From assembly GCA_000165345.1 (NCBI GenBank), contig CM000435.1:512001-576000 (forward strand): DNA of 64,000 nt, in the 5' to 3' direction. Within the stretch, counting starts at the first letter, position 1, and the number at the start of each line of letters is the position of its first letter. The position numbers were made by a program, and so were the translations under genes. Below are positions 16,980 through 17,620 of this stretch, one piece after another. A model generated the notes under the pieces. The model did no database searches. It saw only the letters and a program-made list of their open reading frames with translations, and was not told where the DNA came from.

Positions 16980-17620
16980 GGTAACCCCACACATTGAGAC
17001 AATATGTTAACCAATTATGATTTGTTAAATAGTGCGCTAAATTTAGTTAACCTTATTTAATTTCTCCTCACACTGGTGTCTCCCAAAAGTTATGATTTCT
17101 TTCGTCACTTTTTCGATTTTATATTTAACAGGCTCGACTCGGAGTATTATTTATCTCCGATAACCTAAACCGACTTAAACTTTTATAGCGGGGGTTTTTG
17201 GCAAGTTATACCTCGTAGCTAGTTACGTCCCTAATTCTGGACTTAGCTGGTTAAATAAACTAAAATTGCTTTAGCCGTGCTAATACTAAATCTCGCTGGA
17301 TGCTCACAACCCACCTGAATTGGCAGGGTTTAGGTTCGCCCTCTACCAGCAAGTCGTATCTACTTGATACGTTTTTTTCGATAAAACCAATGTATCTCTA
17401 ATTCATATTTAGTGCCAGTACTTCGTAGTTTTTGGAATTGTGTGGGCGTCCTCAGCTTGGACAGTTGGGTGAGTCCGCGCAAAGTCTTTTTAGCCTTGTT
17501 GCTTTTGTACCACTTGACTTGTGCCGGCGATGTTGTGAACGTTTAACAACAGTTTGGAGTTAAAGGATCGTTTTCTGCGCAAATATTTGGAAAAGGGGAA
17601 ATCGCGGGATTTTATTTAGA
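16980..17620. ncRNA. Candidate structured ncRNA (GC-enriched, ORF-free island); class unknown, telomerase RNA is one hypothesis
   Basis: About 0.6 kb at roughly 45% GC in a 30%-GC background, with no ORF of 60 aa or more on either strand. It contains AACCTAAACC (17161-17170), which is 1.5 copies of the complement of a TTTAGG telomere repeat. Strand, ends and class are undetermined. Confidence 0.2.

Follow-up and report, generated by a model that had tools for sequence, protein, structure and literature searches.

A candidate telomerase RNA gene conserved upstream of SF3a1 in Cryptosporidium parvum and its relatives

The DNA analyzed here is a 64,000-nucleotide (nt) stretch of chromosome 7 of Cryptosporidium parvum, hereafter the window (NCBI GenBank assembly GCA_000165345.1, contig CM000435.1, positions 512,001 to 576,000 of the forward strand), and all coordinates are those of the window. 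Between the genes for a small membrane protein, Ost5, and for SF3a1 lies a gene-free gap, which an earlier, sequence-only reading had put at about 1.1 kb and which measures 1,094 bp, from the Ost5 stop at 16645 to the SF3a1 ATG at 17740. That reading had also suggested that the gap encodes a structured non-coding RNA (ncRNA), possibly the telomerase RNA. The idea has held up, as the gap contains a conserved and strand-specific element with an invariant, unpaired candidate template, a putative boundary hairpin, a predicted pseudoknot and a possible closing helix. Judging from its sequence and from that of its counterparts in related species, the plus-strand element at 17130-17378, about 250 nt long, is a strong candidate for the telomerase RNA gene of C. 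parvum, and we consider the assignment probable.

The element was compared across syntenic regions from 12 further genomes, anchored on the SF3a1 orthologues and giving 13 sequences with C. parvum. On the intestinal side these are the loci of C. meleagridis, chipmunk genotype I, C. ubiquitum, C. canis and two assemblies of public sequencing runs; the bovis/ryanae clade is represented by C. xiaoi, C. bovis and C. ryanae, and the gastric species by C. serpentis, C. muris and C. andersoni. The two sequencing-run assemblies (SRR31860986 and SRR31861040) encode an SF3a1 78% and 76% identical to that of C. parvum, and their Cryptosporidium-like loci are unusually rich in G+C (GC) for the genus, at 40% and 51%, respectively.

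Both BLAST and MAFFT found one conserved block across the loci, at about 16950-17400. The RNA element is present as a single, syntenic copy upstream of SF3a1 in all 13 genomes, with lengths of 249-275 nt, and as one copy within the 64-kb window. Its GC content stays at 37-46% in all species regardless of that of the locus (27-51%), and the 3' part of the block (17295-17410) retains 80-86% identity even in the most distant species. Conservation and compensatory changes in relatives had been named as a check on the original suggestion; the element proved syntenic in 13/13 genomes, and covariation was seen. Its anatomy, as predicted from the 13-sequence comparison and the consensus fold, is as follows.

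17130-17378, plus strand: conserved core and candidate gene for telomerase RNA, of 249 nt in C. parvum; its 5' end is approximate, by about 20 nt or more.
17131-17134, plus strand: 5' strand of P1, GGCU, pairing with AGCC at 17273-17276; proposed to close the template/pseudoknot core.
17139-17160, plus strand: hairpin UCGGAG/loop/CUCCGA, immediately before the template and proposed as its boundary element (P1.1).
17164-17171, plus strand: putative template CCUAAACC, invariant in 13/13 and unpaired in the consensus fold.
17172-17187, plus strand: linker between template and P2, 16 nt in 13/13, variable in sequence.
17188-17193, plus strand: 5' strand of P2, GCGGGG, pairing with CCUCGU at 17211-17216; a short G/C-rich stem.
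17194-17199, plus strand: U-rich loop between P2 and P3 (G UUUUU), the J2/3u equivalent, with UUUU invariant in 13/13.
17200-17207, plus strand: 5' strand of P3, GGCAAGUU, pairing with AAAUUGCU at 17263-17270; forms the predicted pseudoknot.
17217-17252, plus strand: variable hairpin P2.1, which separates P2 from the A-rich tract.
17253-17262, plus strand: A-rich tract leading into the 3' strand of P3.
17295-17350, plus strand: three-way junction of P4, P5 and P6, the proposed stem-terminus element.
17295-99 and 17346-50, plus strand: P4, GCUGG/CCAGC.
17308-15 and 17322-30, plus strand: P5, AACCC-ACC/GGC-GGGUU, with one pair changed on both sides (C-G to U-A).
17332-42, plus strand: P6, AGG-UUCGC-CCU, with loop UUCGY across species.
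17355-17371, plus strand: terminal hairpin CGUAUC/GAUACG, 100% paired in 13/13.
17372-17378, plus strand: T7 run and likely 3' end, T6-8 across species.

At the template site, CCTAAACC is unchanged from C. parvum to the gastric species, 13 of 13, and is left single-stranded by the consensus fold. The octamer CCUAAACC is complementary to GGTTTAGG, which is one TTTAGG repeat plus 2 nt (6 + 2). The template-plus-alignment arrangement proposed earlier is thereby borne out, in the form of a full repeat followed by two further nucleotides. In C. parvum, AA precedes the octamer and could still be copied correctly before U17161 is reached; the template could there extend to 10 nt, AACCUAAACC (17162-17171). 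In several species a U stands immediately before the CC, and the template is therefore limited to eight nucleotides in them. The assignment had been made to depend on the organism using TTTAGG repeats, and this is the telomere repeat in C. parvum and C. hominis (PMC8848321, PMC4407392); in gastric species, telomeric arrays with the same repeat, written GGTTTA, were found at contig ends (PMC13125899). TERT is likewise present in Cryptosporidium (PMC5405514).

The hairpin upstream of the octamer ends 1-3 nt before it. The base of the hairpin, UCGG/CCGA, is invariant, its distal pairs covary (AU, GC, GU), and in the gastric species and C. canis its loop has become an extended stem. The bases just before the octamer are compatible with copying being stopped by the neighboring hairpin, and we infer that the hairpin acts as a template boundary. 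On the other side of the template, P2 is 92% paired, shows both bases replaced in two of its pairs (G·U to C-G and G-C to A-U) and lengthens to 7 bp in the gastric species. The P3 pairing GGCAA/UUGCU of the intestinal species corresponds to GGCAA/UUGCC in the bovis clade, and the gastric clade has GGCUU/AAGC. In all, P3 is 98% paired. Two neighboring pairs have switched both bases in the gastric clade (AA/UU to UU/AA), and past a conserved 1x1 mismatch there are two invariant U-A pairs. The closing helix P1 pairs in 10/10 intestinal and gastric sequences; C. xiaoi, C. bovis and C. ryanae lack its two strands together, and an alternative short closing pair, GCC/GGC, is possible there.

At the position of P2.1, three unrelated sequence families, found in the intestinal, bovis and gastric clades, each form a hairpin. 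Its nine basal pairs are 86% paired, compared with 19-51% when the strands are slid, and seven of the nine change on both sides. No part of the RNA is better conserved than the three-way junction, which is 96-100% identical to its counterparts in C. meleagridis, chipmunk genotype I and C. ubiquitum, is still detected by BLAST in C. serpentis and has helices that are 93-100% paired. By position and shape only, we propose that it may serve as the stem-terminus element, a second TERT-binding domain; such conservation is as expected of a protein-binding surface.

Pairs were counted on a hand-curated, N-padded alignment, automatic MAFFT having misplaced the 3' strand of P3 in two clades; P2.1, where MAFFT shifted the bovis clade by 2 columns, was counted separately. 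Over 43 core pairs, 96.1% of the cells hold standard pairs, compared with 31-45% in slid controls, and the covariation score of 0.163, against 0.107 in shuffles, was reached by 0/500 shuffles. Most of the covariation is located in P2.1. Over all helices there are 57 G·U pairs versus 16 A·C cells, and therefore the plus strand is the RNA.

These counts bear on the possibility that the block is cis-regulatory DNA for SF3a1 or Ost5 and gives rise to no RNA. The gap is of promoter size and the element lies 362 bp upstream of SF3a1, as would suit such a role. However, the helices keep pairing through two-sided changes, including a hairpin built from three unrelated sequences, and the G·U asymmetry is specific to one strand. 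In addition, the gastric element is 1.3-1.7 kb from SF3a1 and equally conserved. A purely regulatory function is thus extremely unlikely.

An RNA read from the minus strand also has to be considered, as a second, reverse-complement copy of AACCTAAACC, overlooked in the sequence-only reading, lies at 17327-17336 and could be its template. The copy is an exact 10-mer, and the two strands fold about equally well (-63.2 kcal/mol for the minus strand versus -65 for the plus strand). Yet C. canis and the three gastric species have AACCTTAACC in place of the minus-strand copy, despite a TTTAGG-type repeat (PMC13125899). On that strand the 57 G·U pairs would become C·A mismatches, compared with just 16 the other way, and the terminal hairpin and T6-8 stand at the 3' end for the plus strand only. 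A minus-strand gene was rejected on the unconserved copy, the G·U asymmetry and the orientation of the T-run, and we give it almost no credence.

Seen from the plus strand, the same positions read GGUUUAGGUU, the exact complement of the 10-nt C. parvum template, and are located in P5/P6. In C. canis and the three gastric species they read GGUUAAGGUU, a U-to-A change, and the template shows no compensating change. A helix between the template and 17327-36 was accordingly rejected as a conserved feature, given the uncompensated change in four species and its clash with P5 and P6. That change means that 17327-36 is not a pairing partner conserved with the template, nor a template on the minus strand.

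The 3' end of the RNA is marked in all species. A hairpin followed by T6-8 closes the conserved RNA in 13/13, and internal T-runs are of five or fewer; from the sequence, the T-run at 17372-17378 is likely an RNA polymerase III (Pol III) terminator and the 3' end. Two further features lie downstream.

17384-17396, plus strand: downstream box AAACCAATGTATC (AAACCAATnTATC), in 13/13 loci, 3-7 nt after the T-run.
17400-17600, no strand assigned: GC-rich spacer, not part of the conserved RNA, with the lowest conservation in the intergenic region.

Even in gastric species, with SF3a1 1.3-1.7 kb away, the box AAACCAATnTATC accompanies the RNA gene. It could be a 3'-end or termination signal, including a 3'-end signal of the type used by RNA polymerase II (Pol II) small nuclear RNA (snRNA) genes, or a CCAAT-type site. 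In the spacer, identity over 17400-17550 falls to 0.64-0.78 with C. meleagridis and to 0.38-0.54 with chipmunk genotype I and C. ubiquitum, the intergenic minimum, and the GC content of the equivalent spacer ranges from 24% to 55% across species. On these grounds 17400-17600 was rejected as a part of the RNA; it may be a 5' untranslated region or promoter of SF3a1.

The same core might instead be carried within a longer Pol II transcript that continues into 17400-17600, or be made as a Pol II snRNA-type RNA and processed at the downstream box. The P. falciparum telomerase RNA is reported to be about 2.2 kb long (PMC5855555), type 3 promoters can recruit either polymerase (PMC8287931), internal U4-5 runs are tolerated, and the invariant box follows the T-run at each of the 13 loci. 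Nevertheless, the longer transcript is unlikely because the GC-rich spacer is unconserved, 17400-17550 being the least conserved part of the intergenic region, and in gastric species the equivalent stretch is AT-rich and 1.2-1.5 kb long. The ending of the block in a hairpin and T6-8, with no internal T-run above five, also argues against it. Taken together, we find the Pol II alternatives improbable.

Upstream of the core, the conserved block contains several motifs on the same strand, with offsets given relative to the RNA.

16986-17123, plus strand: upstream conserved motifs, probable promoter, at fixed offsets in the intestinal clade.
16986-92, plus strand: CCCACAC motif, at about -144 to -146.
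17033-42, plus strand: TGCGCTAAAT motif, at -97.
17066-82, plus strand: CCTCACACTGGTGTCTC motif, with CCTCACACYGGTGTCTC at -65 to -48.
17104-23, plus strand: T-rich, TATA-like tract, at -27 to -8.

From their sequence and placement, these motifs are probably the promoter. TGCGC occurs in all three clades, at -78 to -97, at -67 to -69 in C. xiaoi and C. bovis and at -80 in the gastric species, and TATAAA at -26 is found in the gastric species only. The CACACNGGTGTCTC motif has one occurrence in the window. The CCCACA core at the Cryptosporidium locus resembles the snRNA-type upstream sequence elements (USEs) of plants, algae and ciliates (PMC8287931). Two CCYCACAC-like elements resembling each other begin at 16986 and 17067 (-146 and -65), a distance of 81 bp, and a dyad-like CACACTGGTGTC is found at 17069.

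The candidate had first been noticed as part of a GC-enriched island of about 0.6 kb, and several details of that description have to be revised. The GC content of 16980-17620 is 39.3%, not about 45%, with 41.8% over 17130-17378 and 43.3% over 17400-17600. The interval is far richer in GC than the flanking intergenic DNA (21-25%), as had been noted, but not than everything nearby, as SF3a1 coding windows reach 40-42%. About 3% of segments of the same size across the 64 kb match or exceed it, among them a richer one near 10.9 kb. The interval was said to hold no open reading frame (ORF), which is right insofar as nothing beyond trivial ORFs is found, although ORFs of 40-44 amino acids (aa) exist in it. 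As 17130-17378 is conserved and 17400-17600 evolves fast, the island is two unrelated things, namely the conserved RNA gene, in the block at 16950-17400, and an unconserved GC-rich spacer. The gene thus accounts for only about 250 nt (17130-17378) of the 640 nt first proposed, and the weight once given to GC content was misplaced, the GC-richest part (17400-17600) being unconserved and outside the gene.

The SF3a1 ORF at 17740-19122 encodes 460 aa. Its product matches the C. parvum entry without a difference, which marks the window as C. parvum, and shares 99% identity with that of C. hominis. The upstream small membrane-protein gene (16342-16645) is Ost5, named from related loci (PF05251). 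It appears as two overlapping ORFs because a short GT..AG intron, at about 16431-16490, apparently splits the gene. Gene order differs at the gastric loci, where EMP24 and the RNA gene have a peroxiredoxin gene between them, unlike in intestinal species, and a spacer of about 1.2-1.5 kb with 24-26% GC separates the RNA gene from SF3a1.

The 10-mer AACCTAAACC that first drew attention to the locus is real; it lies at 17162-17171, one base to the right of the position originally given (17161-17170). The exact 10-mer would be expected 0.10 times by chance in 64 kb. For telomere-like 10-mers in any register, 3 were observed in the 64-kb window versus 1.5 expected, and therefore the 10-mer alone is not significant at the scale of the window. 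The weight of the 10-mer as evidence derives from its conservation and context. The third such 10-mer, AAACCTAAAC at 4385-4394 on the minus strand, lies outside the RNA element and fits the chance expectation.

The sequence-only reading could not match the element to known RNA classes by eye, and covariance searches with Rfam gave no family either. At gathering thresholds, none of the 4,227 models, telomerase families included, matched in the whole window. At E up to 10 with permissive filters, the region 16600-17800 gave no telomerase or RNase_MRP match, and two chance matches, to a CRISPR repeat and to mir-9, fell in the AT-rich flanks. No tRNAs were found in the 64-kb window. The lack of an Rfam telomerase match is expected because telomerase RNAs diverge so fast. 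A metagenome scan with AGGTTCGNCCTCNACCAGNNAGTCG returned one GC-rich bacterial chance match only.

A divergent form of another housekeeping RNA, for example RNase MRP RNA, comes into question. RNase MRP RNA is of similar size and is also pseudoknotted, and the C. parvum RNAs that Li et al. report as detected with Rfam include RNase P and lack RNase MRP (PMC9465071). However, neither RNase_MRP nor any other Rfam model matched even at the permissive settings. The conserved P4 (CR-I/CR-V) signatures were not seen by eye, and the invariant telomere-complementary octamer would be left unexplained. We therefore regard this class as very unlikely.

The main alternative is that the element is a conserved, structured RNA of some other function, in which CCUAAACC occurs by coincidence. 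Several observations favor it or otherwise weigh against a telomerase RNA. For 72 ncRNAs of C. parvum no function is known (PMC9465071), many Cryptosporidium-specific ones being among such RNAs, and the element matches none of the Rfam telomerase models. Telomere-like 8-mers are common by chance, numbering 31 in the window versus about 22 expected, and so a conserved ncRNA could carry one accidentally, as some unrelated ncRNAs would. The alignment region of the invariant template is only 2 nt, and in the minimum-free-energy fold of C. parvum the template is paired with GGUUUAGGUU at 17327-17336. The covariation in P3 is a single lineage event, and the gastric 3' strand was placed by hand in a way that favors pairing. 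Six core pairs have changed on both sides, a number reached by 154/500 shuffles and hence no excess; few core pairs vary because the core helices are so conserved. For transcription, the invariant internal U4-5 run in the pseudoknot loop would be awkward for Pol III, a USE + TATA promoter is not definable from the upstream motifs alone, and a deletion of 30 nt precedes the core in C. xiaoi and C. bovis.

Against an RNA of other function, the invariance of the octamer throughout the genus, and its unpaired state, would have no explanation. The octamer is moreover placed amid a boundary hairpin, a linker fixed at 16 nt, P2, a U-rich loop, P3 and a proposed closing helix, a combination of parts that is unexpected by chance. 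For these reasons a coincidental octamer is unlikely, and the element is better read as the candidate telomerase RNA.

The predicted architecture is similar to that of the small, Pol III-type telomerase RNAs. In these, a boundary hairpin, P1.1, abuts the template on its 5' side, and P2 is short and G/C-rich; they also have a loop of 6-8 nt with invariant U, a P3 of 7-12 bp, a closing helix (P1c) and a further stem (PMC8287931). In plant and algal telomerase RNAs, the P2-P3 loop likewise contains invariant U residues (PMC8287931). The Cryptosporidium RNA resembles the Pol III-type RNAs known from plants, green algae, ciliates and stramenopiles (Fajkus et al. 2021, PMC8287931) in its length of about 250 nt, its P1.1, its G/C-rich P2 and U-rich loop of about 6 nt, the 7-8 positions of its P3, a putative closing helix, a 3' stem domain and a T-rich terminator. 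Unlike them, it lacks detectable sequence or covariance-model similarity, and the loop from P2 to the 3' strand of P3 holds the extra P2.1 and is about 46 nt long in C. parvum, compared with 6-29 nt. In place of a long P4-P6 stem, its 3' domain is predicted to form a compact three-way junction. A CR4/5 three-way junction with a P6.1 hairpin is found in the telomerase RNAs of vertebrates and fungi. The Cryptosporidium junction recalls CR4/5, in shape only, as it has a closing stem and two hairpins, one of 3 bp with the invariant 5-nt loop UUCGY.

Within the Apicomplexa, promoter- and template-based searches by Fajkus and colleagues reportedly failed to infer a telomerase RNA (PMC9841428). The reported P. 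falciparum RNA of about 2.2 kb was the sole apicomplexan example found in our literature search (PMC5855555). Cryptosporidium and P. falciparum belong to the same phylum and both have TERT, but the P. falciparum RNA, compared by description only, is about nine times longer and serves the repeat GGGTT(T/C)A. The intergenic ncRNAs of C. parvum described by Li et al. 2022 are 45-531 nt long and conserved in all Cryptosporidium species examined (PMC9465071). That small-RNA survey never mentions telomerase or a template, and the locus at 17130-17378 may be among its unnamed ncRNAs (PMC9465071). No description of a Cryptosporidium telomerase RNA was found in the literature search, whose coverage leaves out most subscription journals, so that an earlier description is possible; the candidate is apparently new.

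From the sequence comparison we infer that the candidate RNA is transcribed, binds TERT and is used as a template, likely in the following manner. TERT would grip the RNA via the pseudoknot/template core and the 3' three-way junction. The two C residues at the 3' end of CCUAAACC would pair with the terminal GG of the telomeric overhang, and copying of AAAUCC by reverse transcription would then add TTTAGG. The hairpin UCGGAG/CUCCGA, 1-3 nt upstream, would halt copying at the 5' edge of the template. The G/C-rich P2, the U-rich loop and P3 would form the pseudoknot of all telomerase RNAs, with GGCU/AGCC closing the core. The terminal hairpin and U6-8 would make up the 3' end, most simply as a Pol III terminator like that of ciliate and plant telomerase RNAs.

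Telomerase RNA is essential and fast-diverging, and in most protist lineages it has yet to be identified. On balance, we lean slightly toward the view that the missing Cryptosporidium telomerase RNA is small, probably made by Pol III and of the plant/ciliate type, combining a plant-like boundary hairpin and pseudoknot with a CR4/5-like junction. The candidate bears on the question of whether small Pol III-type telomerase RNAs are ancestral to alveolates. If it is correct, alveolates would have started out with a small telomerase RNA, that of Plasmodium being a derived expansion, and the Cryptosporidium structure would provide a seed model for telomerase RNA in other apicomplexans and related parasites. 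In this major, CRISPR-editable diarrheal pathogen, the candidate would permit mutation of the template (CCUAAACC to CCUAGACC), TERT pull-down and in vitro reconstitution, and, as a parasite-specific component of an essential enzyme, it may be a possible target.

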